From the NCBI GenBank assembly GCA_025350245.1, contig JANXYG010000007.1, positions 1,615 to 65,614 on the forward strand: a stretch of DNA of 64,000 nt, given 5' to 3'. This document shows, piece after piece, positions 24,247 through 60,945 of the stretch. Positions within the stretch are counted from its first letter, which is position 1. Each line of letters starts with the position of its first letter. The notes under the pieces were generated by a model. That model saw nothing but the letters and a program-made list of their open reading frames with translations, was not told the origin of the DNA and did no database searches. A program made the translations under genes and the position numbers. Source of the stretch: Betaproteobacteria bacterium. Lineage in GTDB: Bacteria > Pseudomonadota > Gammaproteobacteria > Burkholderiales > Ga0077523.

Positions 24247-24277
24247 ACGGGGCGCCAGCGACGGGCCCCGTTTTCTT
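24247..24277 (+). terminator. rho-independent terminator-like hairpin after RTX paralog 1
   Basis: CGGGGC (24248-24253) pairs with GCCCCG (24265-24270), followed by TTTTCTT. Confidence 0.55.
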
Positions 24278-24371
24278 GGGCAACACTTCGCGAGCGGACG
24301 GTCCGCCCGCGGATTCACCGGTGAAGGCACATGGCGCGGCTTCACGGACATAGATCAACAGGAGCGACATC

Positions 24372-27300: not shown

Positions 27301-29591
27301 ACGGCGGTATCGATACGGTGGTACTGCAGTTGACCGGGCCTACGGTGCCGCCACAGTTCGTGCTCGGCGCCAATTTCGAGAACATCTCCATCGATGTGAG
27401 CAACAGCGACGCCGTCATCTACAACGTGACCGCCAACAATCTCGCCAACGCGATCGCGATCGATGCCGATGCCATCGCCGGCAGCACGCTGCATGCCCTT
27501 GGCGGCAACGACACGGTCACGGCCGCCAGACTCATCGGCGATCTGGACGGCGGCGACGGCACCGACTCGCTCGATGCAACGGTGCTGGTGGGCACGGCGA
27601 CTGGCAGCCTCACCGACTTCGAGGCGATCACGCTGCGCGGCAGCGGGGCAGGGGACGCCATCTTCACTGGGGCGATCACCGCCCCGACCACGCTGACCGT
27701 GACCGGGCTGTCGAACATCAGCGTCGCCGGCCTCGCGTATTCCGCGGGCACGACGGTGCAGCTCAACAACTTCGGCGCCACGCTCACCAGCATTGCGGTC
27801 GTGCCGCCTGCAGCGACGCTGACACTCGGGCTCACGGGCGCCAACACTGGCGCTGACCTACTCAACGTCGCTCTGAATGGGACTGATGCGGCGTTGGTCG
27901 ATACCGACCTCGGTGGTGCAATCGAGAAACTCGCCCTCCAGAGCGCCAGCGGCGTTAACGCTGTCGACGTGTCTGGCCTGGCCGACCTGAATGCGCTCAC
28001 CGGCCTGAGCATCACGGGCAACGCCAATGTCGTGGTCGGCGGCCTGGGCGGCAACGGGCTCGGCACCGGCGGTCTGACCGAAACGCTCGGCGTCGATCTC
28101 ACCGGCATCAGCGCCGGCGCGCTCGGACTCAACATCGCGGGTACGCTGTCCGGCGGCAACGACACCCTGACACTGCATCTGGACGGCGTGTTCATCGACG
28201 ACCTGCGCATCGGCCTGGGGGCGGAAGCGGACGTGCTTACGTTGCTCGCCGATTCTGTCGATCCATCGTTGTCGCGGGTCACGCTCTCTGGTCTCGCAGC
28301 ACCCAGCACCACCAACATCGGTGGCACTCGTGACATCGACGTGCGCGGCATCGACAGCACCACGATCAACATCACGCACACGGGCAAGGTGTCGGCGACT
28401 TTCGACGCCGGCGCTACGGTGGACGTGACCGGTGCGAGCGATGTGACGCTGACCGGTTCGGCGACGCTCGCCGACACGGTCAGCATGCACAACACGCTCA
28501 ACAACATCGACCGGATCGATCTCGGCGCCGGCAGCGGCGACGTGCTCAACGCCGATGTCGACGGGCTGGACGGCGCGACGACCGGGCGCCTGAGCATCAC
28601 CAACACCGAGATCATCAATCTCACCTTGTCCACCGGCAGCGCGTCGGTCGACGGCTTCTCGATGAGCGCCGGCACCAAGATCATCCTCGGCGCCAGCAGC
28701 GGCTCGCTCACCGTGACCAACGCGCTCGGCACCTACGACGCGACCGGCTTCTCCGGCCATCTGGTACTAAGCGGTGTGGCGCAGAGCTTCTTCGGCAACG
28801 TGATCGTGACCGCAGGGTCGGCGCAGGACGACACGCTGACCGGTTCCGGATCGTCGACCGGCGACGCCATCAGCGGCGGCGCCGGCAACGACACCATCTC
28901 GGGTCTGGCCGGCAACGACGCCCTCAACGGCAACACCGGCGACGACAGCATCGACGGCGGTGACGGCAACGATACGATCGACGCTGGCGACGGCAACGAC
29001 AGCGTGACCGGCGGCGACGGCAACGACACGATCGCGGGCGGAATCGGCAACGACACGCTGTCCGGCGGCCTGGGCAACGACTCGTTGACCGGCGGTGTCG
29101 GCGACGATTCGATCAGCGGCGGTGACGGCAACGACACCATGCTCGGTGGTGATGGCAACGACAGCATCGACGGCGGAAATGGCAACGACCGCATCGACGG
29201 CGGCCTCGGCAGCGACACCTATACCGGCGGAGCGGGTCTCGACCTCTTCGTGTTCGCAGCAGCACCGAACGGCACCGATATCGACACCGTCACCGACTTC
29301 TCGTCGGTGGACGATCTGGTGCTGCTCGACAAATCGGTGCTGGCATCGCTCGCGGCGGTGCCGACCGGTGCGCTCGGCACCGATCGGTTCTTCACCGACA
29401 CGACATTCGTGGACGTGAACACCGCTGGCGACGCGACCACCGGCGCCAACGATTTCATCAAGTACGAATCGAGCACCGGCAAGCTCTATTACGACGCCGA
29501 TGGCAACGGCGCCGGCGCGGCGGTGCAGATCGCGGTGTTCGGCGTTGGCACCCACCCGGCGCTGACGGCGGAGGATTTCACGGTGACGTGA
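24372..29591 (+). CDS. giant RTX-type calcium-binding repeat protein, predicted T1SS substrate, paralog 2
   Basis: 1739 aa with the same modular architecture. C-terminal run of GGDGNDTI-type repeats, then LDLFVF...VTDFSSVDDLVLLD...KLYYDADGNGAGAAVQIA...LTAEDFTVT. Confidence 0.85.
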   Translation: MATTRIGTFGNDTIIGAVSGDTLIGFSGDDVYDLGVLTSGSFFIVEDAGGGHDAVKVAFTFTLPDNVEDLFLTTLTGGPNNFNGIGNALDNHIVGNIGDNQLDGGTGKDTLEGGLGNDIFVVDNLGDKTIENAGEGTDRVTASVTWTLGANIENLTLSGGLAINGTGNELDNLIVGNGAANIINALLGNDIVSAGSGNDTVDGGAGNDLLAGQAGDDRILGGFGNDTLDGGAGNNQLIGGLGDDRYVVLNVNGGTDTIVETANGGNDTVSTDRSVFTLPNFVENLITTLTTGATLVGNALDNAITGASGADNLFGGAGNDLLDGKGGGDTMTGGTGDDFYLVEQAGDLVVEQANGGNDQVFVNVNDAGAGFLYIATAEVERITLAQGSSTTKVRGNASDNIIIGNAADNTLEGQGGNDRLDGGAGNDTLTGGTGSDTYLLDTVSDVVIEGASAANERDLVLFAGSGTYTLTTNVEDGTLTGTGSSLTGNTLGNMLTGNALSNLLDGGTGIDTLVGGLGNDTYVVDNLNDRVTEGLGGGIDLVRSSAGGSPYILGANVENLELLTAAGAVNGTGNALDNSMTGNSSNNLLDGGAGSDLLIGGAGNDTLLGGTGNDSMDGGTGNDSMRGGTGNDTYTVDSASDIVVELAGQGTDEIDTSIAIDLTLNAGLAGIDHVVLANVAGTPTNVDPPVNLKGNALDNILVGNNQRNEIQGGAGNDLLWSDAPGSSDALADTLIGGVGNDRYVVSNDADVVTELANQGTDVVFSRTANFTLPANVEHLEMQFAAGPSTGTGNELANVIAGSSFDNIINGLAGNDRLLGLGGNDSLTGGTGTDTLEGGIGNDTYKIDSLADVVIEAANSGTDLVQLDVNFAANTLYDLTAKHLVAVENVTVLGDHGLRINGNLLANVINGSNVGNDVLNGKAGNDQLFGNGGNDTLIGGDGNDLLDGGAGNDSMSGGAGNDTYRVDSSTDVVTEAANGGIDTVVLQLTGPTVPPQFVLGANFENISIDVSNSDAVIYNVTANNLANAIAIDADAIAGSTLHALGGNDTVTAARLIGDLDGGDGTDSLDATVLVGTATGSLTDFEAITLRGSGAGDAIFTGAITAPTTLTVTGLSNISVAGLAYSAGTTVQLNNFGATLTSIAVVPPAATLTLGLTGANTGADLLNVALNGTDAALVDTDLGGAIEKLALQSASGVNAVDVSGLADLNALTGLSITGNANVVVGGLGGNGLGTGGLTETLGVDLTGISAGALGLNIAGTLSGGNDTLTLHLDGVFIDDLRIGLGAEADVLTLLADSVDPSLSRVTLSGLAAPSTTNIGGTRDIDVRGIDSTTINITHTGKVSATFDAGATVDVTGASDVTLTGSATLADTVSMHNTLNNIDRIDLGAGSGDVLNADVDGLDGATTGRLSITNTEIINLTLSTGSASVDGFSMSAGTKIILGASSGSLTVTNALGTYDATGFSGHLVLSGVAQSFFGNVIVTAGSAQDDTLTGSGSSTGDAISGGAGNDTISGLAGNDALNGNTGDDSIDGGDGNDTIDAGDGNDSVTGGDGNDTIAGGIGNDTLSGGLGNDSLTGGVGDDSISGGDGNDTMLGGDGNDSIDGGNGNDRIDGGLGSDTYTGGAGLDLFVFAAAPNGTDIDTVTDFSSVDDLVLLDKSVLASLAAVPTGALGTDRFFTDTTFVDVNTAGDATTGANDFIKYESSTGKLYYDADGNGAGAAVQIAVFGVGTHPALTAEDFTVT

Positions 29592-29658
29592 TCGGGGCTC
29601 GACGGCATCAGGCGCTTTGATTGGCGACATCGCTCGGCGTCCCTCACCCTCGGTCCCT

Positions 29659-29889
29659 CCCGAGGGGAGAGGGAGGTCTCCTGCGCCCGAGGGGACAGGG
29701 AGGTCTGCTGCGCCCGAGGGAAGAGGGAGGTCTGCTGCGCCCGAGGGGAGAAGGAGGTCTGCTGCGCCCGAAGGGAGAGGGAGATCTGCGGTGCCTGAGG
29801 GAAGAGGGAGGTCTGCTGCGCCCGAAGGGAGAGGGAGATCTGCGGTGCCTGAGGGGAGAGGGAGGTCTGCGGTGCCTGAGGGGTTGGGG
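29659..29889. repeat. 27-bp tandem repeat array, 8 full units plus a partial unit (consensus CCCGAGGGGAGAGGGAGGTCTGCTGCG)
   Basis: Units delimited by hand at 29659, 29686, 29713, 29740, 29767, 29794, 29821 and 29848, with a partial unit from 29875. Units 5 and 7 are identical. No spacers. Confidence 0.9.
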
Positions 29890-30009
29890 ATGAGGGAAGC
29901 CCGAGCGGAGATTGCGCGGTTGTGGGCCAGTCTTGTGATTGATACAGTCATCTTGAGGCGTAGTAGCTGAATTTCATCGCTGATCAGGACGACTATCGGG
30001 GGAAGTGAC

Positions 30010-33000
30010 GTGGCGCAGACGATCCAGTTCGGTACCGAGGGCGACGACAGCATCGCCGTCGGCAGCGTGTTTCTCACCTACGTGGGCCTGGGCGGCAACG
30101 ACACCTACGCGTTGTCCGCCGCGCTCGGGTCTACGGTGCTGGTCGAGCAGGCGGGTGGCGGAATCGATACGGTGATCGCATCCGCCGCTGGCGCGATCAC
30201 GTTGCCGGACTTCATCGAGAACCTCATCCTGACCGGCGCGGCGGTCGATGCGACTGGCAATGTGCTCGACAACCGGATCGTCGGCAACGTCAACGCCAAC
30301 ACCTTCTTCGCCAGCGGCGGCAACGACACGCTGGTCGGTGGCGACGGCGACGACACCTATTTCGTCGATGCCGCGCTCGACCGGATCGAGGAACTCGCAG
30401 GGCCGGGTTCCGGCAACGACCTCGTCAGCACTTCAGTGACTTATCTGCTGCCGGTGAACGTGGAGCAGGGCACGGCAACCGGCGACAGCCGCGTCGACCT
30501 GACCGGCAATGCGAGCGACAACACTCTGACCGGGAGCGATGCCGTCAACCTCCTGTCCGGACGGGATGGAAACGACAGCGTCCTGGGGGGAGGCGGCAAC
30601 GACACCGTCCTGGGCGGGAACGGCAACGACAGTCTGGCCGGGGAAGACGGCAACGATCTGGTCGATGGCGGCAATGGCGACGACATCGTCGGGGGAGGGG
30701 CAGGCAACGACACCCTGATCGGTGGCGCGGGCAACGACGAGCTTCGCGGCGGCCTCGGCATCAATACCCTCATCGGTGGCAGCGGCAACGACACCTATTT
30801 CGTGACCCTCGCTGCGCTCGGATTCGACACCATCGTCGAAGCGGCCGGTGGCGGCATCGACACCCTGGTCAGCGACGTTCTTACCACGCTGCCGACCAAC
30901 GTCGAGAACCTCACCTACACCGGCGCGGCCGGTTTCACGATCGCCGGCAACGCGCTGAACAACCGGCTCATTGCCGGGGGTGATGTCGCGCGCGTGGCCA
31001 ACGACCTGATCGAGGGCTTTGCCGGCAACGACTGGATCGATGGCCGGGAGGGCGCCGACACCATGCGCGGTGGCGCCGGCAACGACGTCATGGTCGTGGA
31101 CAATATCGGCGATGTCGTGGTCGAGAAGGCGAACGAGGGTACCGATCTGGTCTACACCTCGTTGGCCGACACCACGCTATCGGACAACGTCGAGAACCTC
31201 AGCTTATTGGCAGGCACCGCGGCGCGGACAGGACGCGGCAATGCGCTCGCCAACGTCATCACCGGCAACACCGACGACAACTATCTGACCGGCGGCGCGG
31301 GTAACGACAGCCTGATCGGCAGTGGCGGCGCCGACAGCCTGTTCGGCGGCGCGGGCGATGATACCTATGTGATCGGCAACCCCACCTCGAGTGGGCAAGT
31401 GACGTCCCGCGTGTTCGAGAACAGCGATCCGGGCAGCGGTATCGACACCATCCGGATCGAGCAGTCGACCACCAACTTCACCATGCCCGATAACGTGGAG
31501 CGCGTGGTTGCGCTGCTGGCTGAGCGCGTCACCGGCAACCGGTCGGGCAACACCATCGAGGCCGGGAGCGGCGACAACGTCATCGATGGCGGGCACGGCA
31601 CCGACACGATGATCGGTGGCGATGGCAACGACTACTTTCGGGTGGACGCGAGCAATGTCGGCGGCGCCGCGGGTGACGTGGTCGTCGAACTCGCGAACGG
31701 CGGGTTCGACACGGTCGAAACGAAAGTCACGTTCACCCTGCCGGTCAACGTGGAGCAGATGTTCCTGCTCGCCGGTGCCGGTGCCCTGAATGGCACCGGC
31801 AACGCGCTCGACAACACGATCGGCGGCAATGCCAGCGCCAATACGCTGTCCGGCCTTGCTGGCAACGACCTCCTGTTAGGTGATCGCGGCAACGACATTC
31901 TGTTGGGCGGCGCCGGCAACGACACGCTCGACGGCGGTGGCGGCGATGACAACATGCAGGGCGGTATCGGTGATGATGAATATCGCGTCGATTCGCTCAA
32001 CGATATCGTCAACGAGGGGGTGAACGGCGGAAGCGACCTGATCCTGTCGACGATCTCGATCAATTTGCAGAACTATGCGCATGTCGAGTCGGCAATGCTA
32101 CTTGCCGGGAGCCGCGGCCTGACGCTGAGCGGCAGCGCCGCGGGCAACACACTGACCGGTAACGAGCGCAACAACTCGATCACCGGTCTTGGGGGCGACG
32201 ATGTGCTTCGGGGCGGCGCCGGGAACGATACGCTGATAGGTGGCGCCGGCAACGATACCTACTATGTGGATGCGACCGACGGGGATGGTGCTGGCGGCTT
32301 GGCCGACCAGGACACGTTGACCGAAATCACATTGGAAGGCACGGACACGGTCGTGTCGACCGGCACCTGGACCCTGGCCGACAATTTCGAGAACCTGATC
32401 CTCGGCCCCAGCAGCGATCAGGTGACCGGCAATTTCAGCGGAACCGGCAACGCGGCCAACAACCGTATCCAGGGCAACAACCTCAACAACGCGTTGAACG
32501 GTGCGGCCGGCAACGACACCCTGGTCGGCGGTGCGGGCGACGACAGCTACACCGTGGACGCTGTGGGCGACGTGGTTACCGAGACGGCGAACAACGGTAC
32601 CGATCACGTCACGCTGGCGAGTGCGGCGGTCGCGGCGAACTACCTGTTGCCGGCCAATGTCGAGAACGTCGACATGGCCTTCGGCGCATCGGCGCGCATC
32701 ACCGGCAACGCCCTGGCGAACACCATCACCGGCAACGCGCAGAACGACATCATCGACGGCCGCGAGGGCGATGACACGCTCACCGGCAATGCGGGCAACG
32801 ACACGCTGACCGGAGGCCTCGGTAACGACTCGATCGACGGGGGTGCCGGGCTCGATCTGATGACCGGTGGTGCGGGGGACGATACCTTCGTGGTGAGCAC
32901 CGGCGATGGCGCCTTCGGCGGCGGTCAGACGGCGCTGGAGGATCGCGTGATCGAAGCCGCCGGTGGTGGCACCGACCTCGTGGTGCTTGCCAACGCGGGT

Positions 33001-34896
33001 GCCGGCTACGCATTGCCGGATCAGGTCGAGAATCTCGACGTGAGCGTGGCGCTGGCCGACGGTTTCACCCTCTTCGCCAACGTTTTGGCCAACACCATCC
33101 GGATGGAAAGCATCGCCGGCGCGTCCAGCGTGTTTGCCGAGGGCGGCGACGACGTGGTCGATCTCGGTGACGTCGCCACCGGCGCATCGCTCACGCTGCG
33201 CGGCGGCCTCGGCGAAGATCGACTGTCGTTCACCGCCTCTGGCGCCACCGGTACGATCGACATGAACGGCTTCGAGACGGCGCGGATCGAGACCGGGATC
33301 CAGACCGTGTTCGGCGGAGCATCCGCGATCACCGGCCTGCGCGAGCTGACGGTCGTCGGCGTTGGCGATCTGACGTTGCCCGGATCACTCTCCACCAACT
33401 ATATCCTCGACGGCTACGGCGGCACGTTGACGCTTGCCGTGGCGGACGCCACACCCGGCACCGACACCATTCACCTGCGCGTCGTCGACACCACCGGCGC
33501 GTCGATCGGCGGCATGGAGGGGGTCGAACGCGTCATGATCGACAGTGCCACGGCGCAGGGAAGCATCACCAACCTGCTGACGGTGTTTCCGCTGGACGCA
33601 ACCCCCGGCCGAGTGTTCGAGGTCGGCGGTGCGGCGCCGCTGCTGCTTGCGGGTCTGGCCGACAACGCCCGGGTCGAACTCTCGGGCTATAGCAGCAACG
33701 CGTTCGACTTCACCATGGACGACGACGCGGGTGTCGATCGCCTCGGCATCGCGCTCGACGGATTCAACGGGACGATCGGTGCCGATCTCGGCAGCGGCCC
33801 GGACGAATTGACGTTGTCGAGTGGCGTAGCGGGGCTGCCGAATGCGCCGTCGGAGGTCCGATTCACGGGGCTGTTTTCGGATGATCAACTGGTGCTCACC
33901 GGGGCCGGCAATCTGACCGTGATCGATTCGGTGGCACAGCAGATCGTCATCCAGAATTACACCGGCGATCTCCAGTTCGATCCCGATGCGTTCGGCCAGT
34001 CGATCATCGTAAACGCCACAGCAGCAGGGCAAGGTTCACTGGCGCTCTTCGGCACCATCGGCAACGACACCTTCGACATGGGCAACACGCTCGATGGCAG
34101 CGACGTGATCGGCGGTCTTGCCGGCAACGACACCCTCACGGCGAACATCACCGGGCTCGTCGCCGGTACCACGGGACGCCTCAACATCCAGGTGGAGAAT
34201 GTCTTTTTCACCATCGACGCCGGGAGTACCACTACCTCGCTCGACATGGACAGCGTGGTGTCATTCCCGACACCGTCGACGTTCGCTGTGACTGGCGGCG
34301 GGGGCGGCGTTGGCAGTGTCAATACCCTCGACGTCCAGAACGCCTCCGACAACTGGAACTTCAACGGGTACACCGGCACGTTGACGTTTTCGAGCCGCAG
34401 CGACATAGCGGCAACCGTCACCGGCACCGGTGGCAACGACTCGTTCACCGGGCGCGATGCCGCCGACAGCTTCTCGGGCGGGGGTGGCAACGACACCCTC
34501 TCCGGTGGCCTGGGCAACGACACGCTGACCGGTGGCGCCGGCGCCGACATCTTCGTGCTCGGCGATCTGTTCACGTTCTCCGGCGATCCGCAGGCGCCGA
34601 ACATCGACACCATCACCGATTTCGATGCGGCAGACATTCTGCAACTTAAAGGTGATTCGCTCGATTCGCTCTTCGGCAATCTGCCGAAAGATGTGCTGGG
34701 GGTGCAAGCTCCAGGTGCTTTCTTCGCTGCTCCGGGTGCAACCACCGCCGCCGCCGCCGATGACCGCGTCATCTACAACACGACCAACGGCAACCTGTAC
34801 TACGACGTCGATGGCATCGGCGGCGTGGCGTCGATACAGATCGCCACACTCACGGGTGCGCCAGCACTGACGGCGGCGGATATCGTGGTGACGTAG
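30010..34896 (+). CDS. giant RTX-type calcium-binding repeat protein, predicted T1SS substrate, paralog 3
   Basis: 1628 aa from a GTG start. Same architecture; C-terminus GGAGADIFVL...ITDFDAADILQLKGD...NLYYDVDGIGGVASIQIA...LTAADIVVT. Confidence 0.85.
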   Translation: MAQTIQFGTEGDDSIAVGSVFLTYVGLGGNDTYALSAALGSTVLVEQAGGGIDTVIASAAGAITLPDFIENLILTGAAVDATGNVLDNRIVGNVNANTFFASGGNDTLVGGDGDDTYFVDAALDRIEELAGPGSGNDLVSTSVTYLLPVNVEQGTATGDSRVDLTGNASDNTLTGSDAVNLLSGRDGNDSVLGGGGNDTVLGGNGNDSLAGEDGNDLVDGGNGDDIVGGGAGNDTLIGGAGNDELRGGLGINTLIGGSGNDTYFVTLAALGFDTIVEAAGGGIDTLVSDVLTTLPTNVENLTYTGAAGFTIAGNALNNRLIAGGDVARVANDLIEGFAGNDWIDGREGADTMRGGAGNDVMVVDNIGDVVVEKANEGTDLVYTSLADTTLSDNVENLSLLAGTAARTGRGNALANVITGNTDDNYLTGGAGNDSLIGSGGADSLFGGAGDDTYVIGNPTSSGQVTSRVFENSDPGSGIDTIRIEQSTTNFTMPDNVERVVALLAERVTGNRSGNTIEAGSGDNVIDGGHGTDTMIGGDGNDYFRVDASNVGGAAGDVVVELANGGFDTVETKVTFTLPVNVEQMFLLAGAGALNGTGNALDNTIGGNASANTLSGLAGNDLLLGDRGNDILLGGAGNDTLDGGGGDDNMQGGIGDDEYRVDSLNDIVNEGVNGGSDLILSTISINLQNYAHVESAMLLAGSRGLTLSGSAAGNTLTGNERNNSITGLGGDDVLRGGAGNDTLIGGAGNDTYYVDATDGDGAGGLADQDTLTEITLEGTDTVVSTGTWTLADNFENLILGPSSDQVTGNFSGTGNAANNRIQGNNLNNALNGAAGNDTLVGGAGDDSYTVDAVGDVVTETANNGTDHVTLASAAVAANYLLPANVENVDMAFGASARITGNALANTITGNAQNDIIDGREGDDTLTGNAGNDTLTGGLGNDSIDGGAGLDLMTGGAGDDTFVVSTGDGAFGGGQTALEDRVIEAAGGGTDLVVLANAGAGYALPDQVENLDVSVALADGFTLFANVLANTIRMESIAGASSVFAEGGDDVVDLGDVATGASLTLRGGLGEDRLSFTASGATGTIDMNGFETARIETGIQTVFGGASAITGLRELTVVGVGDLTLPGSLSTNYILDGYGGTLTLAVADATPGTDTIHLRVVDTTGASIGGMEGVERVMIDSATAQGSITNLLTVFPLDATPGRVFEVGGAAPLLLAGLADNARVELSGYSSNAFDFTMDDDAGVDRLGIALDGFNGTIGADLGSGPDELTLSSGVAGLPNAPSEVRFTGLFSDDQLVLTGAGNLTVIDSVAQQIVIQNYTGDLQFDPDAFGQSIIVNATAAGQGSLALFGTIGNDTFDMGNTLDGSDVIGGLAGNDTLTANITGLVAGTTGRLNIQVENVFFTIDAGSTTTSLDMDSVVSFPTPSTFAVTGGGGGVGSVNTLDVQNASDNWNFNGYTGTLTFSSRSDIAATVTGTGGNDSFTGRDAADSFSGGGGNDTLSGGLGNDTLTGGAGADIFVLGDLFTFSGDPQAPNIDTITDFDAADILQLKGDSLDSLFGNLPKDVLGVQAPGAFFAAPGATTAAAADDRVIYNTTNGNLYYDVDGIGGVASIQIATLTGAPALTAADIVVT

Positions 34897-51517: not shown

Positions 51518-51610
51518 GGAGATGTGACCGAGCGGCCGAAGGTGCTCCCCTGCTAAGGGAGTATGCGGGCAAAACCTGCATCCAGGGTTCGAATCCCTGC
51601 GTCTCCGCCA
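51518..51610 (+). tRNA. tRNA-Ser (anticodon GCT), long variable arm
   Basis: GGAGATGTGACCGAGCGG..., anticodon loop CTGCTAA, long extra arm, GGTTCGAATCC, 3' CCA. Confidence 0.92.
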
Positions 51611-51636
51611 GACAGCAACAGCAACAACAGCACATA

Positions 51637-51713
51637 GCGCCCGTAGCTCAGTTGGATAGAGTACCTGGCTACGAACCAGGGGGTCGTGGGTTCGAATCCT
51701 GCCGGGCGCGCCA
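51637..51713 (+). tRNA. tRNA-Arg (anticodon ACG)
   Basis: GCGCCCGTAGCTCAGTTGGATAGAG, anticodon loop CTACGAA, GGTTCGAATCC, 3' CCA. Confidence 0.93.
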
Positions 51714-51871: not shown

Positions 51872-54647
51872 ATGGCTTTAGAACAACAAGCGCGAAAGAC
51901 CATCGATCGCCTGCTCGCTGCTGCGGGCTGGGCCGTTCAGGACTTCAAGGTCGCCGATATCCATGCTGCCCGCGGCGTGGCGCTGCGCGAGTTCGCACTG
52001 AACGCCGGCTTCGGCTTTGCCGACTACTTGCTGTACATCGACGGCAAGGCTGCGGGCGTCATCGAAGCCAAGAGGGAGGGTGCCACGCTCACCGGCGTGG
52101 AAGTGCAATCCGGCAAGTACGCCCAAGGCCTGCCCGCGAGCCTGCCGGCCTGGCGCCGCCCGCTACCCTTCCTGTACGAATCCACCGGCATCGAGACGCA
52201 CTTCACCAACGGTCTGGACCCCGAGCCCAGGGCGCGCAACGTCTTTGCCTTCCACAAGCCCGAGACGCTCCTCCAGTGGCTGCGAGAGTTGCCACAGGCG
52301 ACCGTGCCTGAGCACCGGCCCTGCGCCCGCCGCGAACCAGGCCGCCTTTGCCCCTGCCACCTTCCTCACCCGTGTGCGCACGATGCCCGAACTGGTCACG
52401 GAGTGGGGCGAACACAAGCTGTGGCCGGCCCAGATCACGGCCATCCGGAGCCTGGAGCAGAGCCTCGCCCAGGGCCGGCCGCGCGCCCTGATCCAGATGG
52501 CCACCGGCAGCGGCAAGACCTTCACCGCCATCAGCTTCATCTACCGGCTCATCAAGTACGCCAATGCGCGCCGGGTGCTGTTTCTGGTGGACCGCGGCAA
52601 CCTCGGCCGACAGACCAAGAAGGAGTTCGACCAGTACGTCTCGCCCGTCAACAATTTCAAGTTCGGTGAGGAATACATCGTCCAGCACCTGACCGACAAC
52701 ACTCTCGACAAGAGTGCACGAGTGGTCATCTGCACGATCCAGCGCATGTTCAGCATGCTCAAGGGCCGCGAGCTGCCGGCCGACCTGGAGGAGGAGTCCG
52801 GCGCCGGGCTCGACAGCCTTTTCCGGGCTGCCGACCCCATCGACTACAACCCGCTGCTCCCGATCGAGACCTTCGACATCATCGTCACCGACGAAGCGCA
52901 CCGCTCCATCTACAACCTGTGGCGGCAGGTGCTGGAGTATTTCGACGCCAGCCTCATCGGCCTCACCGCTACGCCGAGCAAGCAGACCTTCGGGTTTTTC
53001 AATCGCAACCTGGTGATGGAATACGGCCACGAGCAGGCGGTGGCAGACGGCGTCAACGTGAACTACGACGTCTACCGCATCCGCACGCAGGTGAGCGAGG
53101 CCGGGAGCAAGGTCGAATCCGGCTACTACGTGGACTTTCGCGACAAGCTCACCCGCAAGGTGCGCTGGGAGCAACTGGACGAAGAGTTTGCCTACGACCC
53201 TAACCGGCTGGATCGTGACGTGGTGGCCGTGGACCAGATCCGCACGCTGGTGCAAACCTTTCGGGACAAGCTGCCCACCGAGATCTTTCCGGGCCGCACG
53301 GAGGTGCCCAAGACGCTCATCTTCGCCAAGGACGACAGCCACGCCGAAGACATCGTCAAGATCGTGCGCGAGGAGTTCGGCAAGGGCAACGAATTCGCGC
53401 AGAAGATCACCTACCGCACTACCGGCGAGACGCCCGAACGCCTGATCGCTGCCTTTCGCAACAGCTACCACCCCAGGGTGGCCGTGACCGTCGACATGAT
53501 TGCCACCGGCACTGACATCAAGCCGCTGGAAATCGTGATGTTCATGCGTGCGGTGAAGAGCCGCAGCTTCTTCGAGCAGATGAAGGGCCGCGGCGTGCGC
53601 GTGATCAGCCCGGCCGACCTGCAAAGTGTGACGCCCGACGCCAAGGCCAAGGATCACTTCGTCATCGTCGACTGCGTGGGGGTGTGCGAGCAGGACATGA
53701 CCGACTCCCGGCCCATGGACCGAAAAAAGACCGTACCACTGGAGAAGCTGTTGCAGGCCGTGGCGCTGGGCAACACCGATCCCGACGTGCTTTCCTCGGT
53801 GGCCGCCCGGCTTGCGCGCCTGGAGAAGGACCTCCCGCCTGCTGACCAGGACCGCATCACCCTGGCCGCTGGCGGCCTCACACTCAAGGACATGGCCCGC
53901 GGCCTCGTCAACGCGATGGCGCCAGACCAGCCTCCCGAGCAGGCCGTTGCCGCCGTTCAGGCCGCGATCAAGCCATTTTCCAATCCGGCGCTGCGCGAAC
54001 TGATCGTCACCCTGAAGAAGCAGAACGAACAGGTCATCGACACCGTCACCGAGGACGAACTGATCGAAGCCGGCTTCTCCGAAGCCGCCCGCGAGCGAGC
54101 ACGCAAGATCGTTGGCACCTTCGAGCAGTTCATCGAGCAGCACAAGGATGAGATCACCGCATTGCAGCTCCTCTACAACCGTCCGACCAGGGCGCCGCTG
54201 AAGTTCGAAGACCTGAAGTCATTGGCCGACGCACTACATGCCCCGCCGCACCTGATTAGCGAATCCGCGCTGTGGCAGGCCTACGCCGCCCTGGACAAGT
54301 CGAAGGTCAAGGGTGCGAGCACGAGGCGCATCCTCACCGACCTGGTTTCACTGGTGCGGTATGCGATGCATCAGGAAAATGAACTGGTGCCATACCCGGA
54401 GCGCGTTGCTGCCAACTTCAAGGCGTGGATGGCGCAGCAGCAAGCAGCGGGCAGGGCGTTCAGCGACGAGCAGCACTGGTGGCTGGAGAAGATGGCCGAG
54501 CACATCGCCTCCAACCTCGGACTCGATGCGGAGGATTTCGAGCTGTCGCCGTTCAACCAGCAGGGTGGGTTGGGCAAGGTGCATCAGCTCTTCGGGGCCG
54601 AGTTGACTAACGTGATCGAGGCGATGAATCGGGAGTTGGCGGCGTGA
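51872..54647 (+). pseudogene. hsdR: type I restriction enzyme R subunit (HsdR, EcoEI/type IB-like C-terminus), apparently frameshifted near 52290-52330
   Basis: The N-terminal nuclease domain (MALEQQARKTIDRLL..ADYLLY..VIEAKREG) is in the frame of ORF 51782..52669. The helicase part (LWPAQ..MATGSGKT..TDEAHRS) and the EcoEI_R_C-like tail are in the frame of ORF 52017..54647. Confidence 0.75.
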
Positions 54648-55900
54648 CCGTAGCAACCGAAGTCATCACGGCGGCAGCCGGCTTGGTTCCGTTGACCCAA
54701 GCGGTCGAGATCAATCCGCGTCCAGAGCGCGGCGCGCTTTCCGACGACCTCGAGGTATCGTTTGTACCCATGGCTGCCGTCGGAGCGGCCACTGGGCGGA
54801 TGGACCCTTCCACGGTCCGTCCATTTGCCGAAGTGAAAAAGGGCTACACGTTGTTCCGGGAAAACGATGTGCTCTTCGCCAAGATCACGCCCTGCATGGA
54901 AAACGGAAAGATGGCCGTAGCCCGCGGCCTTCGGAACCGCGTCGGCTGCGGTTCAACCGAGTTCCACGTGCTGCGACCTCGGCCGGGCGTCGACCCGCGG
55001 TACGTCTATCACTTCGTGTCGAGTGCGCGTTTCCGAGCCGAGGCTGCGCATCACATGACGGGCGCCGTCGGTCAGAAGCGCGTGCCCACTGCATTTCTTG
55101 AGCAGTGTGAGATCCCGTTACCCAATCTGGGCGCGCAGCGTCGCATCGTCGCTGAAATCGATAAGCAGTTTTCCCGTCTCGACGAAGCCGTCGTCAACCT
55201 CAAGCGCGCCAAGGTGAACCTTGCGCACTATGAGCGAGCGACGATCCAGCACTTTACGCGACCGTCATCGTTCGAGGTGGCAACGCAGGGAGCTGCCTCA
55301 GACGTCGCGGTTTCGCTAGACAACATGCGAGGGCCGGTCAACAAGGCGGAACGGGCAAAACGGTCGGGCAAAGTCCCCTACCTCGGGGCCAACGGACAAA
55401 CTGGATGGATTGACGAGGCCCGCTTCGACGAAGAACTCGTGCTCGTAGTTGAGGACGAGACCTTTGTCGGACGTACGGCACCATTCAGCTACTACTTTTC
55501 AGGGAAGTGTTGGGTCAACAATCACACGCACGTTTTGAGAGCACGGCGGGACGTTGTACTGCCGGAGTACCTGAACTTCGCGCTCTCGTACTACGCGTTC
55601 ATCCCGCTCACGACGGGATCTACAGGGCGTCGCAAGCTGACAAAAGCTGCGCTTATGAGCGCGCCCATTGCCTTGCCAGATCTGCAAACTCAAGTCCAAA
55701 TCCTGGAGGAAGTTGAACGGCGAGTTTCGATTGCTCGCAGCGTAAAGTCCGAGGTGGAGACTTGCTTGGCGCGAGCAGAGGTACTGCGGCAGAGGGTTCT
55801 TGCCGAATCCTTTGCAGTGACGCGTCGTTCCGAATCGCAGCCAAGGCCCAACGATCGACTGCATGGAGGTAAACATGAAGCTGGTGCGTGCGCGGGGTAA
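54644..55900 (+). CDS. hsdS: type I restriction-modification specificity subunit HsdS (two target-recognition domains)
   Basis: GTG start overlaps the hsdR stop. ITPCMENGK, STEFHVLR and two conserved coiled-coil regions (QRRIVAEIDKQFSRLDEAV; VQILEEVERRVS...LRQRVLAESF). The second TRD is visibly lower in GC. Confidence 0.8.
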   Translation: MTVATEVITAAAGLVPLTQAVEINPRPERGALSDDLEVSFVPMAAVGAATGRMDPSTVRPFAEVKKGYTLFRENDVLFAKITPCMENGKMAVARGLRNRVGCGSTEFHVLRPRPGVDPRYVYHFVSSARFRAEAAHHMTGAVGQKRVPTAFLEQCEIPLPNLGAQRRIVAEIDKQFSRLDEAVVNLKRAKVNLAHYERATIQHFTRPSSFEVATQGAASDVAVSLDNMRGPVNKAERAKRSGKVPYLGANGQTGWIDEARFDEELVLVVEDETFVGRTAPFSYYFSGKCWVNNHTHVLRARRDVVLPEYLNFALSYYAFIPLTTGSTGRRKLTKAALMSAPIALPDLQTQVQILEEVERRVSIARSVKSEVETCLARAEVLRQRVLAESFAVTRRSESQPRPNDRLHGGKHEAGACAG

Positions 55901-55997
55901 GAACTTTCGGTCTGTTGAAGACAGTGGAGAGATCGAGATTCCCCCGACGACCGGCATTGACTCCGAGAACGTCAAGCGACTACGCGGCGCTCATTGA
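55875..55997 (+). pseudogene. 40-codon remnant resembling the N-terminus of an AAA/OLD-type ATPase
   Basis: GGAGGT RBS, then ATG 55875: MKLVRARGKNFRSVEDSGEIEI..., a typical opening of AAA_15/AAA_21/OLD-family ATPases. The ORF stops before any Walker A motif. It overlaps the hsdS 3' end. Confidence 0.35.
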
Positions 55998-56084
55998 GCC
56001 CAAGGGCTGACGGGCTCCAATCGCGAGGAGTATGGCCTTTCGTTCCTCAAGCCTATGGGAGAGAATGCGGCAGAGGTGCCTGCG

Positions 56085-57008
56085 ATGACTTCAGAACATA
56101 CGGTTGAACTAGCTACATTGCGCTTCGAGGGGAAACGCTTCGAGGGCCATGCCCTCGACGTCGAGTGTACCCAAGAGCTGCTTGCCTATCGCACGCTGGT
56201 GCTTGAGTGTGCCAAGGAACTTTGGCGACGCGAGAACCCGAAGCGCATGCGCCTGCCAAAGCGGTTCGACGACGGTTTTCGCCTCGAATTCGACAAAGTG
56301 CTGCCGGGATCGGCCGCATTGCCGCTTCGCCGAGTGCGCGACGTCGTCCAGGTGGAATTCGAGTTCGGTGACGAGTTCGATGAGGCGGCGGCGCTAATCG
56401 ATCAGGCCATCTCAGCAGCAGATCGCGACGAATTGCTGCCCGAGCGACTTCCGTCGAACGTGGTTCCGCTGTTTCGAGAATTCGGTAGGACGATGCGACC
56501 AGAAGAGACGCTCTTCGTTCGATCAGGACGAAGCACGACAGAGGCGGTCTACGGCGAGCGAGCGCGCCGACGCTTGGCCGAGTGGGTGGATCCCACGTTC
56601 GAGGATACCGTCAGTCTTGTCGGCGAGGTTCGCATGGCCAACGTTGGCCCAGGCTCATTCAAGTTGCAACTGCCTGACGGTGGCCCTCTGATCGACGGCA
56701 GGTTCGACGGCAGCCATGAATTCGTCGTTCTGGAGGCACTGAGGAACCATCGGAGTGCTCAGTTGCGAGTCGAAGGTGTGGCCGAATTCTCGACCCGTGA
56801 TCGACAGATGAGGCGAATCGTTCGTGTGGATCGCGTGGAGGTCGCCCTGCATTCGACCGCGACGTTCGACGAGTCGGCCAAGCCGATCTGGGAGGAACTG
56901 ACTTCCATCGGGCAGGGAGCACCCGCAGGAACGTGGGATACCGTACCCGATGATCTTTCGACACGCATCGACGAGGTTGTGTATGGCGCCACGAGCGAGC
57001 GTCGTTGA
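56085..57008 (+). CDS. hypothetical protein (~307 aa), upstream partner of the PIN protein
   Basis: ORF 56055..57008. The preferred start ATG 56085 is preceded by GAGGTG. Its stop overlaps the PIN start (TTGA). No family recognised. GC is lower than in the core. Confidence 0.6.
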   Translation: MTSEHTVELATLRFEGKRFEGHALDVECTQELLAYRTLVLECAKELWRRENPKRMRLPKRFDDGFRLEFDKVLPGSAALPLRRVRDVVQVEFEFGDEFDEAAALIDQAISAADRDELLPERLPSNVVPLFREFGRTMRPEETLFVRSGRSTTEAVYGERARRRLAEWVDPTFEDTVSLVGEVRMANVGPGSFKLQLPDGGPLIDGRFDGSHEFVVLEALRNHRSAQLRVEGVAEFSTRDRQMRRIVRVDRVEVALHSTATFDESAKPIWEELTSIGQGAPAGTWDTVPDDLSTRIDEVVYGATSERR

Positions 57009-57415
57009 GGTCGGTGTTCGTTGAGACCGGCTACTGGGTAGCGGTTTTAGACCCGAACGACCATCTCCATGAACGCGCGCGAAATGTGTCGGCGGCGCTT
57101 GGCAAGGTGAGGCTGGTCACGACGGAAATGGTGCTCTCCGAATTGCTTGCCGCGCTGTCGAGACTGCCGGTTCGGCAATATGCGATCGAAGGCGTCGATC
57201 GCATTCGCGCCAACCCCAATGTGGAGGTCATTCCACAGACTTCTCTGCAGTTCGCCCGTGCATACGACATGTACAGACGACGCACCGACAAGGAGTGGAG
57301 CCTTGCTGATTGCGCTTCGTTCGAGGTGATGCAGACACGCGCGATCACGGAAGCGCTCGCGCATGACGCACATTTCGAACAGGCAGGATTTGTCGCCTTG
57401 CTCCGCGGCGGTTGA
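57005..57415 (+). CDS. PIN-domain (VapC-like) ribonuclease
   Basis: VFVETGYWVAVLD...LVTTEMVLSELL...WSLADCASFEVM...ALAHDAHFEQAGF matches the PIN acidic-residue pattern, with Glu in place of the usual first Asp. Start is TTG 57005 or GTG 57014. Confidence 0.78.
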   Translation: MRSVFVETGYWVAVLDPNDHLHERARNVSAALGKVRLVTTEMVLSELLAALSRLPVRQYAIEGVDRIRANPNVEVIPQTSLQFARAYDMYRRRTDKEWSLADCASFEVMQTRAITEALAHDAHFEQAGFVALLRGG

Positions 57416-57442
57416 TCTTGCAGTCAATAGTTGTGTCACTGG

Positions 57443-57569
57443 CGTGGTTGATCTTTGGTCAACCACGCATGTTCAGGTACCGGAACCGTTCAGGTTTCGT
57501 GAACAACGAAGAAATTTGAACAAATCGCAGGTACCGTTCAGAATACCGCGGTGTTCACAAAACGTGAAC
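57443..57569. promoter_or_regulatory. intergenic hairpin plus repeated GTTCA/TGAAC-type motifs (candidate operator of the downstream AbiE-like pair)
   Basis: 9-bp stem hairpin at 57443-57467. CAGGTACCG occurs at 57474 and 57528, and CCGTTCAG at 57486 and 57534. Palindrome GTTCAC-N5-GTGAAC lies at 57553-57569. Confidence 0.4.
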
Positions 57570-57580
57570 GAGTTCGAAAA

Positions 57581-58633
57581 ATGAACATAACAGAGGAAGA
57601 TGCCTGCCTTGATGGGGCCAAGACGGCCCTGGAGCGCATCGGCCTCAAGGTGGCAACGGTCCGGCCGCCGCCAAAAGTGCCACGCGATCGGACGGACGCC
57701 TGGCTGCGAATCGGGCGCGGGAAGGAGGGGGCGGGCTATCTGGTCGAGGTCAAATGCGGCTTGACTGCCGGCACTGTGGGAGCAGTCGTCGCGCAACTGC
57801 GCGACCGCGCGACCCAGACAGGCTGGCCGACGTTGCTCGTCACTCACCATCTGACCGCGCCCGTGGCCGACGCACTACGCGAGCGCGGCCAGCAGTTCGC
57901 GGACGCGGCCGGCAATGTCTACCTCAACGCTCCGGGCCTGTATGTCTATGTGGCGGGGTTTCGGCCCAAAGCGCGGGCAGTCACCGTCAGAGGAGGTGCC
58001 ACCAACACCGCTAACGGCCTGAAGATCCTCTTCGCTCTGCTCTGCGATCCAACGCTGGCGCAGGCGCCGCAGCGCACGCTTGCCGTGGCAGCCAACGTCG
58101 CCCTGGGGGCTGTGCCTGCTGCCTTGCGAGCTTTGCAGGCCGAAGGCCATGTCGCGGCGCTGAACAAGCAACGTCATTTTCGGGGCACCAAACGCCTGCT
58201 CGATGAGTGGGCGCATGGCTACGCACGCCGCCTGCGACCCAAGACCTTGCTCGCGACCTACACCACCGAACGCTTCGACACCTGGCCTAAATGGGCCCTC
58301 GATCCGGCAGAAGTTCGTTGGGGCGGGGAGTCGGCGGCGGCGCTGCTCACGAAGTACCTGCGCCCGGGCGTTCTGACCCTGTACGCGGACCGGCTCCCGC
58401 CGCGCGTCATGGTGGCGCAGCAATTGATCAAGGAGGATCGCCCGCCAGCACAACGCTATGTCGAGGTGCGGCGCCCGTTCTGGGGCGCTCGGCTCAACGA
58501 GCAGGCACGGCCGGACATCGTGCCCCTGGTCCTGGTGTATGCAGACCTGCTGGCCACCAACGATGGTCGCTGCATCGAGACGGCGCAGAAGATCTACGAG
58601 GATCACCTTGCTCGACTTCTCCCGGCTGCCTGA
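57581..58633 (+). CDS. AbiEi-like putative antitoxin/regulator with an N-terminal PD-(D/E)xK-like segment and a wHTH-like middle region
   Basis: TDAWLRI...GYLVEVK (D...ExK pattern); NGLKILFALLCDP...LAVAANVALGAVPAALRALQAEGHV (wHTH-like). It overlaps the downstream NTase gene. The family assignment is an inference. Start is ATG 57581 (GTG 57551 also possible). Confidence 0.5.
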   Translation: MNITEEDACLDGAKTALERIGLKVATVRPPPKVPRDRTDAWLRIGRGKEGAGYLVEVKCGLTAGTVGAVVAQLRDRATQTGWPTLLVTHHLTAPVADALRERGQQFADAAGNVYLNAPGLYVYVAGFRPKARAVTVRGGATNTANGLKILFALLCDPTLAQAPQRTLAVAANVALGAVPAALRALQAEGHVAALNKQRHFRGTKRLLDEWAHGYARRLRPKTLLATYTTERFDTWPKWALDPAEVRWGGESAAALLTKYLRPGVLTLYADRLPPRVMVAQQLIKEDRPPAQRYVEVRRPFWGARLNEQARPDIVPLVLVYADLLATNDGRCIETAQKIYEDHLARLLPAA

Positions 58634-59441
58634 GCTCGGTCTCCATGCAGCAGTGGTGGCCGATGTTCAGGCTGCCGGTGCCCCGCTGGGCATCCACCCC
58701 TTGATCGTGGGGGCGTTTGCTCGCGACCTGCATCTCGTCCACGCCCATGGACTGGCGATCCAGCGGCAGACCGAGGATATTGACCTGGCGCTGGCCGTGC
58801 CGGACTGGCAAGCCTTCGACGAGCTGAAGGCCCGCCTGGTGGCCTCGGGCAAATTCGGGGCGTCCGGAACGGCACATCGATTTCGTCATGGTTCGGTCCC
58901 GGTTGATCTCGTACCTTTCGGACCGGTGGAATCCGCAGACCGACGGATTGCCTGGCCGCCGGATGGCGACCCGATACTGGACGTTTTCGGATTTCGGGAG
59001 GCGCAGCGAACGGCGGTTCCCGCTGCGCTTGCAGGCGGCGTACAGACGAGTGTCGTCTCGCTGCCAGCGCTCGCGCTCCTCAAGCTCGTATGCTGGAACG
59101 ACCGACACCTGACCACACCGGGGAAAGATGCGTCCGATCAGCAACTGATCGTTGCGAACTATCTCCCGGCCGGCAATCAGGATCGCCTCTGGAGCGAATT
59201 CGTCCACTGGACCCAGGCTGACGACTTCGAGTACGAGCCAGCGGGCGCACGGATGCTCGGCAGGGACATCGCCGCCTTGCTGGATGATCGCGGCCACGCA
59301 CGGATCGCAGCGCTGCTTGCAACCCAGGCAGACGCCACGCATCCTGCCCCGTTGCCCTTCCAGATGAACAATGCTGCCCCCGAACGTGCGCGCGCGATGC
59401 TCGCTGCCATGCTCGAGGGATTGACCGAGAACCGCGCATGA
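58608..59441 (+). CDS. nucleotidyltransferase, AbiEii/AbiGii-toxin-like
   Basis: IVGAFARDLHL...RQTEDIDLALAV fits the G[AG]x(n)DxD NTase motif. TTG 58608 is preceded by GAGGA. It overlaps the upstream gene by 26 nt. Confidence 0.55.
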   Translation: MLDFSRLPELGLHAAVVADVQAAGAPLGIHPLIVGAFARDLHLVHAHGLAIQRQTEDIDLALAVPDWQAFDELKARLVASGKFGASGTAHRFRHGSVPVDLVPFGPVESADRRIAWPPDGDPILDVFGFREAQRTAVPAALAGGVQTSVVSLPALALLKLVCWNDRHLTTPGKDASDQQLIVANYLPAGNQDRLWSEFVHWTQADDFEYEPAGARMLGRDIAALLDDRGHARIAALLATQADATHPAPLPFQMNNAAPERARAMLAAMLEGLTENRA

Positions 59442-60945
59442 ACGCTTCCACCCTCGTCTAGAAGCTCTGGAACTACTGCAACGTTTTGCGCGACGACGGG
59501 ATGAGCTACGGCGACTACGTCGAGCAGCTCACCTACCTGCTGTTTCTCAAGATGGCCGACGAGCGGTCGCGGCCGCCGTACAGCCAGCCGAGCCTGGTGC
59601 CTGCGCGATACGCCTGGAGCGAGTTGCTCGCGCGCGACGGCGATGCACTGTTCGACCACTACCGCCACACGCTCGAAGCGCTGGGCAACGAGAAGGGGTC
59701 TCTCGCGCTGATCTTCAACAAGGCGCAGAACAAATTCCAGGATCCGGCCAAGCTGCGGCGTGTGATCGTCGACCTGATCGACGCCGAGAACTGGTCGTCG
59801 ATGAGCGCCGACGTGAAGGGCGACGCCTACGAGGGCCTGCTCGAGAAGAACGCGCAGGACACCAAGAGCGGTGTCCGGCCAGTACTTCACGCCTCGAGCC
59901 CTGATCGCCGCGATGGTGGACTGCATCGCACCCCGGCCGGGCGAGCGTGTGTGCGACCCCGCATGCGGCACCGACGGCTTTCTCTTCACCGCGCACAACT
60001 ACATCGTCCACCATCACCCGAACCTCACCAAGGACGAGAAACGGCACCTGAAGGAAGGCGCGTTCCGCGGCTGGGAGCTGGTGCAGGGCACCGCCCGTGT
60101 GTGCGCGATGAACCGTGCTGCTGCACGGCATCGGCTCGGACAAGCAGGTGCCCGTGGCTGTGACCGACGCGCTGGCAGCAGACCCCGGGGAGCGCTTCAA
60201 CGTGGTGCTCGCCAATCCGCCCTTCGGCAAGAAGAGCAGCACCATGATCGTCGGCGACGGCGGCAAGACCACCACCGAGAAGGACATCATCGAGCGCGAC
60301 GACTTCTGGGCCACCACGTCCAACAAGCAACTGAACTTCGTGCAGCACATCAAGACGCTGCTCAAACCCCACGGCCGCGCCGCGGTGGTCATCCCCGACA
60401 ACGTGCTGTTCGAAGGCGGCGCCGGCGAGACCATCCGCCGCAAGCTCCTGCACGAGTGTGACGTGCACACGCTGCTGCGCCTGCCCACGGGCTTGTTCTA
60501 CGCTCAGGGTGTGAAGGCGAACGTCCTGTTCTTCGACAAGAAGCCCGCTTCGGAATCGCCGTGGACCCGAAAGCTCTGGATCTACGACCTGCGCACCAAC
60601 AAGCACTTCACGCTCAAGACCAACCCGCTCAAGCGCGAAGACCTGGATGAGTTCGTGCGGTCCTACAACCCGGCCAACCGTCACGACCGCAAGGCCGCGG
60701 GGAGCGCCAAGCAACCCGACGGCCGCTGGCGCGTCTACGACTACGACGAGCTGGTTGCCCGCGACAAGGCGAGCCTGGACATCTTCTGGCTCAAGGACGA
60801 CTCGCTCGCCGAGTCCGACAATCTGCCGCCGCCGGACGTCATCGCTCAGGAGATCGTCGACGACCTGGAGGCGGCGCTGGAGCAGTTCCGGCTGATTGCG
60901 GCCGACCTGCGGGTCGGGGCGAAGGCGGCGGGAGAAGGCGGATAA
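59438..60945 (+). pseudogene. hsdM: type I restriction-modification methyltransferase HsdM, disrupted (in-frame TAG at codon 8 plus two 1-nt frameshifts)
   Basis: MNASTLV-TAG(59459-59461)-KLWNYCNVLRDDGMSYGDYVEQLTYLLFLKM. The frame changes near 59866-59876 (KSG | GQYFTPRALI) and near 60111-60116 (CAMN | LLLHGIG). The NPPF motif (VLANPPFGKK) is in the third frame. Confidence 0.82.

Follow-up and report, generated by a model that had tools for sequence, protein, structure and literature searches.

PrrC, the anticodon nuclease of the EcoprrI type Ic restriction-modification (RM) locus, joins an ABC-ATPase-like protein to a nuclease by fusion, and AbiE (AbiEi/AbiEii) is a type IV toxin-antitoxin (TA) and abortive infection system. 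Transcriptional coupling of PIN-type TA genes to subunits of type I RM systems has been reported, and TA modules have been proposed to gather near defense islands and to stabilize them (Matelska et al. 2017, PMC5499597). In a separate study (Payne et al., bioRxiv 10.1101/2024.01.29.577857), genes lying inside BREX, DISARM, and type I RM loci yielded 145 phage defense candidates. Two of the systems described there are relevant here: the cassette PDC-M32 (CAS_00128, FAM_01821>>FAM_00608), a PADLOC-DB v2 candidate, and HEC-03, an ABC ATPase paired with a PIN protein, which was selected for testing as an Hma-embedded system. Here, we describe a two-gene module, composed of gene A and a PIN-domain gene, that resides within a type I RM locus on a 64,000-nucleotide (nt) stretch of a Betaproteobacteria genome (GenBank assembly GCA_025350245.1, contig JANXYG010000007.1, forward-strand positions 1,615 to 65,614; hereafter, the window). 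From the homologies of its parts, we consider it probable that this pair is a VapBC-type (type II-like) TA module whose antitoxin has been enlarged by sequences otherwise known from PDC-M32.

The two genes and the relevant parts of their products, in amino acids (aa) where lengths are given, are the following:

56085–57008 including the stop codon, + strand: gene A, encoding an enlarged antitoxin-like protein of 307 aa (open reading frame (ORF) list and public gene calls).
56085–56594, + strand: A residues 1–170, an N-terminal alpha/beta domain shared with PDC-M32A (AlphaFold 2 (AF2) model).
56595–56849, + strand: A residues 171–255, a predicted OB-like five-stranded barrel (strand order b1-b2-b3-helix-b4-b5).
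56877–57005, + strand: A residues 265–307, a VapB-like tail (PIWEELTSIGQGAPAGTWDTVPDDLSTRIDEVVYG…), the putative PIN-neutralizing segment (homologue consensus and a hidden Markov model (HMM) of the tail).
57005–57415, + strand: the gene of the VapC20-like PIN toxin, 136 aa (Pfam PIN PF01850; TTG start).
57023–57025, + strand: PIN codon 7, GAG, which encodes Glu in place of the first catalytic Asp (alignment of 84 relatives).

A first-pass annotation, made from the letters of the window alone, had reported a 307-aa ORF overlapping a PIN ORF through the sequence TTGA, and both the coordinates and the Pfam match bear this out: the PIN start codon (TTG, 57005–57007) overlaps the stop codon of A (TGA, 57006–57008). 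The upstream ORF spans 56055–57008, such that the ATG at 56055 is an alternative start yielding 317 aa, while public gene calls choose 56085; for the PIN gene, GTG at 57014 is an alternative start. Gene A thus occupies the antitoxin position directly upstream of PIN, with the 4-nt overlap expected of translationally coupled VapBC genes. Both are real genes, since A has many relatives (1246 cluster representatives at E≤1e-3 in an exhaustive HMMER search, and 421 proteins in a second database) and the identical pair was found on several independent metagenome contigs.

Much of the evidence for the TA reading comes from the C-terminus of A. Among relatives of ~300 aa, the tail follows the consensus PIWE…(v)P.eEW.kvP.DL..NLDHYLYG.pK; the window tail is a degenerate version of it (PIWEELTSIGQGAPAGTWDTVPDDLSTRIDEVVYG), with RIDEVVYG in place of NLDHYLYG. 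We scanned one genome per species with a degenerate DNA pattern for D...NLDHYLYG, a design that favors perfect NLDHYLYG tails, and obtained at least 120 sites. The tail bearers among the matches listed were mostly small proteins (55–165 aa), and 18 of the bearers matched the M32A N-domain model. We sampled ten of the small bearers, and the N-termini of three were antitoxin-type domains: a ParD-type ribbon-helix-helix (RHH) domain (2.8e-7), a CopG-type RHH domain (3.4e-6), and a Phd/YefM domain (4.9e-6, just below the Pfam cut-off). One of the others resembled DUF2281 at E=0.078 only, and another consisted of an OB barrel and the tail alone. In most of the listed tail loci, the next ORF is 132–148 aa long and starts 1 nt before the stop codon (NTGA). 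Indeed, 88 of the 101 ORFs downstream of the listed tail-bearing genes were phmmer homologues of the window PIN, with E-values down to 2.5e-44.

Since the tail is borne by small proteins, follows antitoxin-type N-termini, and has a PIN gene next door, it is, as judged from sequence, a portable module of antitoxins that serves specifically this PIN subfamily. An independent HMM, built from 90 small antitoxins only, all outside the M32A family, matched the window tail at E=7.6e-5, its single match among the 852 ORFs of the window. Moreover, antitoxins made of the OB barrel and the tail, without the N-domain, are encoded at loci L056, L092, L063, and L124, indicating that the architecture of A is modular and composed of an N-domain, an OB barrel, and a tail. 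At locus L104 (~240–1582, oriented), two tandem OB-barrel-tail antitoxin genes flank a PIN gene, a local duplication of the minimal module.

The toxin side of the pair is closest to VapC20. The PIN protein matches Pfam PF01850 at 2.7e-10 (41.3 bits, with a cut-off of 23.6), the NCBIfam VapC family weakly (E=0.0076), and no PADLOC model. Its closest solved relative is M. tuberculosis VapC20 (5wzf, deposited as the 23S rRNA-specific endonuclease VapC20), to which it aligns over its full length at 2.2e-11. The module therefore resembles VapBC20 in the homology of the toxin and in the upstream partner gene that overlaps it by 4 nt, and it resembles VapBC pairs in general in the A tail, which is common to small RHH, ParD, and Phd-type antitoxins of this PIN subfamily. 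It differs from VapBC20 in the partner: a canonical antitoxin is small (~70–100 aa), with an N-terminal RHH, AbrB, Phd, or helix-turn-helix (HTH) domain, whereas A has 307 aa, comprising an unmatched domain of ~170 aa and an OB-like barrel, and lacks a recognizable DNA-binding domain. The partner is thus several times the size of VapB, as had been remarked from the ORF list. Further differences are the Glu that replaces the first catalytic Asp of the toxin and the lack of an operator-like repeat upstream of A. It is the pairing of tail and PIN, combined with the antitoxin-type N-domains of other tail bearers, that leads us to place A-PIN with the VapBC-type modules, its antitoxin being enlarged. 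The earlier suggestion of a PIN-based TA with a large partner holds in this form, as a non-canonical TA-like module recognized by tail-PIN homology and pairing.

The remainder of A connects the pair to PDC-M32. Residues ~8–253 match the PADLOC candidate PDC-M32A (PDLC04575, 6.2e-45) at profile positions 5–252 of 375 (residues 18–263 in the numbering of the 56055 ORF), and the similarity stops at residue ~253. PHROGs assigns A to phrog_30544 and M32B to phrog_31579, neither of which has an annotated function. Protein A had initially been described as belonging to no recognizable family, a description that must be revised for both of its ends: the first ~250 residues belong to PDC-M32A and phrog_30544, and the C-terminus shares homology with the tails that ordinary small antitoxins carry in this PIN subfamily. 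Searches of A against Pfam and NCBIfam gave no domain match, and Pfam, NCBIfam, and PDB sequence searches with A, the long-type M32A, M32B, and the tail profile gave nothing significant.

Two length classes were evident among the best 150 hits of A. The first, of ~300–315 aa, accounts for 99 of these hits and aligns end to end with the window protein. The second, of ~375–400 aa, aligns up to residue ~250 and continues into a different domain of ~120 aa. On Limnohabitans and Rhodococcus plasmids, canonical M32A has 377–401 aa and is followed by an overlapping gene for a 139–143-aa B protein, which strongly matches PDC-M32B (1e-49 and 2e-41, respectively) and has no Pfam match. The window PIN had no match to PDC-M32B even at E≤10. 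The possibility that M32B is a cryptic PIN was ruled out by BLASTP, and hhalign of M32B against the PIN family returned a probability of 0.3%. Overall, the module is similar to PDC-M32 in that A matches M32A and in being an overlapping two-gene cassette within a type I RM locus; it differs from it in the C-terminal domain of A, which in canonical M32A (~375–400 aa) is the other domain of ~120 aa, and in the partner, as M32B is unrelated to PIN and has no Pfam match.

A plasmid search yielded three matches only, all distant and all canonical PDC-M32, and neither tblastn of phage records nor a search for related loci in viral contigs gave a match. Phage and prophage genomes, including that of Leptospira phage LE1, hold long-type PDC-M32A-like and M32B-like proteins; the BFVD hits of this set are A0A8S5QA00, Q6NE06, and A0A8S5T657. 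One BFVD hit carried the label DUF6575, which we dropped, as it provided no tie to a named system or to the A family. DUF6575 is reportedly listed by Vassallo and colleagues (2022) among the domains of validated E. coli defense systems. Another relative, protein P0127 (405 aa), has ~100 extra residues with CxxC pairs (zinc-ribbon-like) beyond a DHxYxYG tail and would be a third C-terminal architecture in the A family.

We next consider the structure of A, modeled with AF2 from a 100-sequence alignment (predicted local distance difference test (pLDDT) 92.1, predicted template modeling score (pTM) 0.73); a single-sequence model with a pLDDT of 42.7 was set aside. The N-domain, in which F14, G16, R18, W47, S76, P119, and P123 are conserved, has no structural relative in the PDB (fold search with the A model, E≤1e-3). 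The best partial PDB matches of A, over ~85–90 columns, are all OB folds: the N-domain of LysRS/AspRS, RPA32, Stn1/CST, and an engineered OBody. The OB partial matches in the PDB and BFVD are weak (E of ~5e-3 to 5e-2; the best in the PDB is 4.7e-3, and none is ≤1e-3). In BFVD, three proteins match A nearly over its full length (E~1e-9), including a protein of Leptospira phage LE1, and the other matches are OB folds, namely, SSB, RecJ, and ExoVII. The search gave no query coordinates, and we infer from the strand order of the model that the OB matches fall on residues 171–255.

In the proposed module, the N-domain and OB barrel occupy the place of the usual DNA-binding domain of an antitoxin and may together regulate or sense, possibly by binding nucleic acid. 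PDC-M32A contains this N-domain/OB module as well, joined to another C-terminal domain and encoded beside an unrelated partner. We favor a regulatory or sensing role, with a plain autoregulatory or addiction role as the alternative. Under this alternative, A-PIN would be a simple addiction (post-segregational killing) module that stabilizes a mobile RM/defense island without sensing phages, and A would owe its large N-terminal part to an unusual autoregulatory domain that binds DNA or RNA. The tail family otherwise occurs on classical antitoxin DNA-binding domains, an OB barrel can bind nucleic acid, the module is scattered across genomes like ordinary TA pairs, and stabilization of defense islands is a role already proposed for TA modules (PMC5499597), all of which agree with addiction. 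However, no operator-like palindrome precedes A, and the N-domain/OB module is reused with M32B, in phages (phrog_30544, BFVD), and recurrently in defense loci, a pattern more typical of defense modules than of simple autoregulators. We therefore regard an addiction role without sensing as unlikely.

An extension of the VapBC-type reading is that the N-domain and OB barrel form a portable sensor with two or more unrelated effectors, wired through the VapB-like tail to a VapC20-like PIN and through the ~120-aa adaptor to M32B. We put this forward tentatively, as it is rather less likely than not to hold. If true, these proteins would constitute a modular sensor-adaptor-effector family of phage defense in which the antitoxin tail serves as a leash between toxin and sensor, the latter possibly binding nucleic acid, and the sensor of the Betaproteobacteria clade might also monitor the enclosing type I RM complex.

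The window PIN carries a change in its catalytic site. Of 84 relatives, 82 have Asp at position 7 and none has Glu, the residue found in the window; the position aligns with an Asp of VapC20 that is Ala in the second deposited VapC20 sequence, 5wz4. The conserved E46, D95, D102, and D121 are all retained, among them the catalytic E46, D102, and D121, such that Glu7 is what separates the protein from the full acidic active-site set of VapBC toxins. The exact 136-aa sequence was seen on eight contigs from different sequencing runs, and hence E7 is no read error. The window PIN may be attenuated by D7E and by its TTG start; as Asp to Glu is a conservative change that keeps the carboxylate, activity could remain. 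Both genes had been called intact, which is correct for the ORFs, as both are full length, but not for the first catalytic position of PIN.

Related loci show further damage to the toxin gene. PIN has a premature stop next to a full-length A in L136 (7927–8331) and L137 (FADTG*W), as well as in the Polaromonas loci L138–L140 (7927–8330; VEVVP*TS), and in L130, A is present alone and PIN has been lost. That PIN is broken or lost in three related loci suggests that the toxin may be attenuated, and decay that reaches PIN before A is what one would expect of a harmful PIN. These observations also bear on the possibility that the pair is a decaying remnant in this genome, with a PIN that is dead or weak (D7E, TTG) and an A without function. 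Glu7 is unique among the 84 relatives, the equivalent VapC20 Asp is Ala in 5wz4, PIN nonsense mutations or loss recur in the three related loci, and the neighboring hsdR and hsdM are frameshifted (see below). Against this, neither ORF is truncated and several independent samples contain identical copies of both, Glu retains the carboxylate, and all other conserved PIN residues are present. We consider decay a plausible contender, albeit less likely than not.

Several of these observations weigh against the VapBC-type reading. In the window, the tail is a degenerate one with modest support from the independent HMM (7.6e-5), and no complex of tail and PIN was found among solved or predicted structures. 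The OB assignment comes from weak Foldseek E-values (≥4.7e-3), and D7E may mean that the module is no longer functional in this genome. In addition, neither an operator palindrome nor a sigma-70-like promoter was found upstream of A; together with the lack of a DNA-binding domain, this leaves classical autoregulation of A not evident. The lack of an operator and a promoter fits read-through transcription from the hsd operon, and A-PIN is probably co-transcribed with the hsd genes.

The surrounding genes are ordered lysC, tRNA-Ser, tRNA-Arg, hsdR, hsdS, A-PIN, AbiEi_2/AbiEii, hsdM, and a SapC-family gene, and the features of the RM locus are the following:

51518–51713, + strand: tRNA-Ser(GCT) and tRNA-Arg(ACG), directly preceding hsdR and the island (ARAGORN).
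51881–54647, + strand: hsdR, with an EcoEI_R_C domain and a frameshift between ~52307 and 52358 (Pfam, tblastn).
54644–55900, + strand: hsdS, the specificity subunit, an intact ORF (Pfam Methylase_S, 5e-20).
57581–59441, + strand: AbiEi_2 (57581–58633) and the AbiEii nucleotidyltransferase (58608–59441), a second embedded pair (Pfam, 7.5e-37 and 6.9e-8).
59438–60945, + strand: hsdM, the methyltransferase, with two frameshifts near 59860 and 60105 (Pfam, tblastn).

The pair accordingly lies between hsdS, upstream, and hsdM, downstream, as first described. The first-pass annotation had also called hsdR and hsdM broken and the local GC content low, and both statements withstood analysis. Using intact orthologues 82–87% identical to the window fragments as tblastn queries, hsdR was recovered in two frames (residues 4–145 in frame 2 and 165–930 in frame 3, at 51881–52306 and 52359–54644) and hsdM in three (59438–59872, 59844–60113, and 60097–60909); in Pfam searches, HsdM_N and N6_Mtase fall on separate ORFs. 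Assembly error is an unlikely source of these frameshifts. Three long ORFs (1629, 1739, and 1628 aa), arranged serially at 19323–34896 (+ strand), are unbroken, and gene calls on an independent contig from a metagenome-assembled genome (L003) split hsdM into the same two ORFs; the hsd breaks are thus probably real. GC content is 0.58–0.60 across 55001–58000, versus about 0.64–0.68 around it.

The AbiE pair, with gene calls of 350 and 277 aa, was omitted from the first-pass annotation. It directly follows PIN and shares the hsdS-hsdM gap with A-PIN. Like A-PIN, it is an embedded two-gene TA/abortive infection module; its proteins are unrelated to A and PIN, making it a separate module. An imperfect 53-nt inverted repeat at 57469–57588 covers the intergenic region upstream of AbiEi and the start of the gene, with GGTACCG…TTCAG direct repeats, and is plausibly an AbiEi operator. 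The gap between hsdS and A (55901–56084) measures 184 nt, compared with 18–33 nt in orthologous loci, and automated gene calls include an ORF of 40 aa there (L004, 2315–2437).

Close homologues of A are 59–83% identical to it, and the named ones are mostly from Betaproteobacteria. In L131, L132/L133, and L136, the gene order is hsdR-(insert)-hsdS-A-PIN-hsdM, and A begins 18–33 nt after hsdS; hsdR is full length in all of them, while hsdM is full length in L133 and L136, split in L132, and shorter in L131. The RM-embedded position noted in the window therefore recurs in related genomes. In Ramlibacter (L134/L135), A-PIN is standalone among housekeeping genes. In Polaromonas (L138–L140), it adjoins a ResIII helicase and an N6/N4 DNA methyltransferase, surroundings that possibly represent a type III-like RM locus. 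For distant loci of the ~300-aa class from other phyla, ten neighbor genes were checked and were mostly housekeeping genes, two being helicase/PLD-nuclease genes. Some homologues of A thus reside in type I RM loci, and others stand alone among housekeeping genes.

These contexts allow us to evaluate a closer coupling to the RM complex, in which A-PIN would be an abortive infection system operating in the manner of PrrC/EcoprrI. By analogy with PrrC, the N-domain/OB module would dock on or monitor Hsd, and phage anti-restriction proteins or RM failure would release PIN. Several genomes have the pair at the hsdS-hsdM position with its orientation unchanged, PDC-M32 owes its discovery to embedding in BREX, DISARM, or type I RM loci, and transcriptional coupling of PIN genes to type I RM subunits has a precedent (PMC5499597). 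Nevertheless, hsdR and hsdM of the embedded loci are 82–87% identical to the window fragments, versus 62–74% for A; as the hsd genes are more conserved than A, a single insertion in an ancestor, passed on together with the RM locus, can account for the shared position. Housekeeping genes surround the pair in Ramlibacter and in most of the distant loci examined, and A and PIN of the window have persisted next to RM genes that are dead. We therefore consider coupling of this kind improbable, and the standalone A-PIN copies show that it is not required.

The comparison with PrrC, raised in the first-pass annotation, holds for the kind of position, an RNase effector gene inside a type I hsd operon, and not for homology, as no sequence or domain relationship was found and other members of the family are standalone. 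Membership in a PrrC-like family was rejected, since A matches only PDC-M32A and PIN only PIN/VapC. HEC-03 provides another parallel, having a VapC-like PIN with a large non-VapB partner and having been found by embedding in a DNA-modification defense system; its partner is an ABC ATPase, whereas A lacks an ATPase motif and has a VapB-like tail.

The same RM backbone carries other cargo at other junctions: MNT/HepT in L131, AAA_14/DUF4143 in L136, and AbiE in the window, a pair that the orthologous loci L131, L132, and L136 lack. The junctions of the hsd operon seem to act as insertion hotspots. In L131, MNT/HepT-like nucleotidyltransferase pairs lie between hsdR and hsdS (5800–6907), and in L136, an AAA_14/DUF4143 ATPase occupies this junction (3869–5311). 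The orthologous island of L131 adjoins gyrB, rather than tRNAs as in the window, which marks the RM-TA island as mobile. The stretch examined showed no integrase.

Returning to A-PIN as a VapBC-type module, we propose the following mechanism. The PIN would be a VapC20-like ribonuclease that, by homology, most likely cuts rRNA or tRNA and thereby stops translation. The tail of A would bind and block it, as suggested by the pairing of tail and PIN and by the antitoxin-type N-domains of other bearers. The N-domain/OB module would decide when the toxin is released, whether upon phage infection or upon loss of the locus. The pair would have entered this genome within a composite hsdR-hsdS-[A-PIN]-hsdM island; with the RM genes now frameshifted and the PIN carrying E7 and a TTG start, the toxin is probably weakened here.

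The N-terminal family (PDC-M32A, phrog_30544), PIN TA pairs, and embedding in type I RM loci were already known. New, as far as we searched, are the branch of the M32A family that bears the tail and is coupled to PIN, the identity of the A C-terminus as a widespread antitoxin tail outside Pfam families, and the joint swapping of adaptor and effector that this implies. For this genome, the importance of the module is modest, as the RM system is dead and the catalytic site of the toxin is changed. For the family, the finding links a widespread PIN/antitoxin-tail pair with the defense candidate PDC-M32, which had been catalogued separately. The PADLOC rule for PDC-M32 demands both A and B and would miss the PIN-coupled branch, a ~300-aa class that supplies at least 99 of the cluster representatives in the best 150 hits. 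PDC-M32A also gains a logic: a conserved module of ~250 residues with exchangeable C-terminal adaptors and exchangeable toxins. If this module senses infection, A-PIN would add one more TA pair that acts as a triggerable immune switch, built on a simple modular design.

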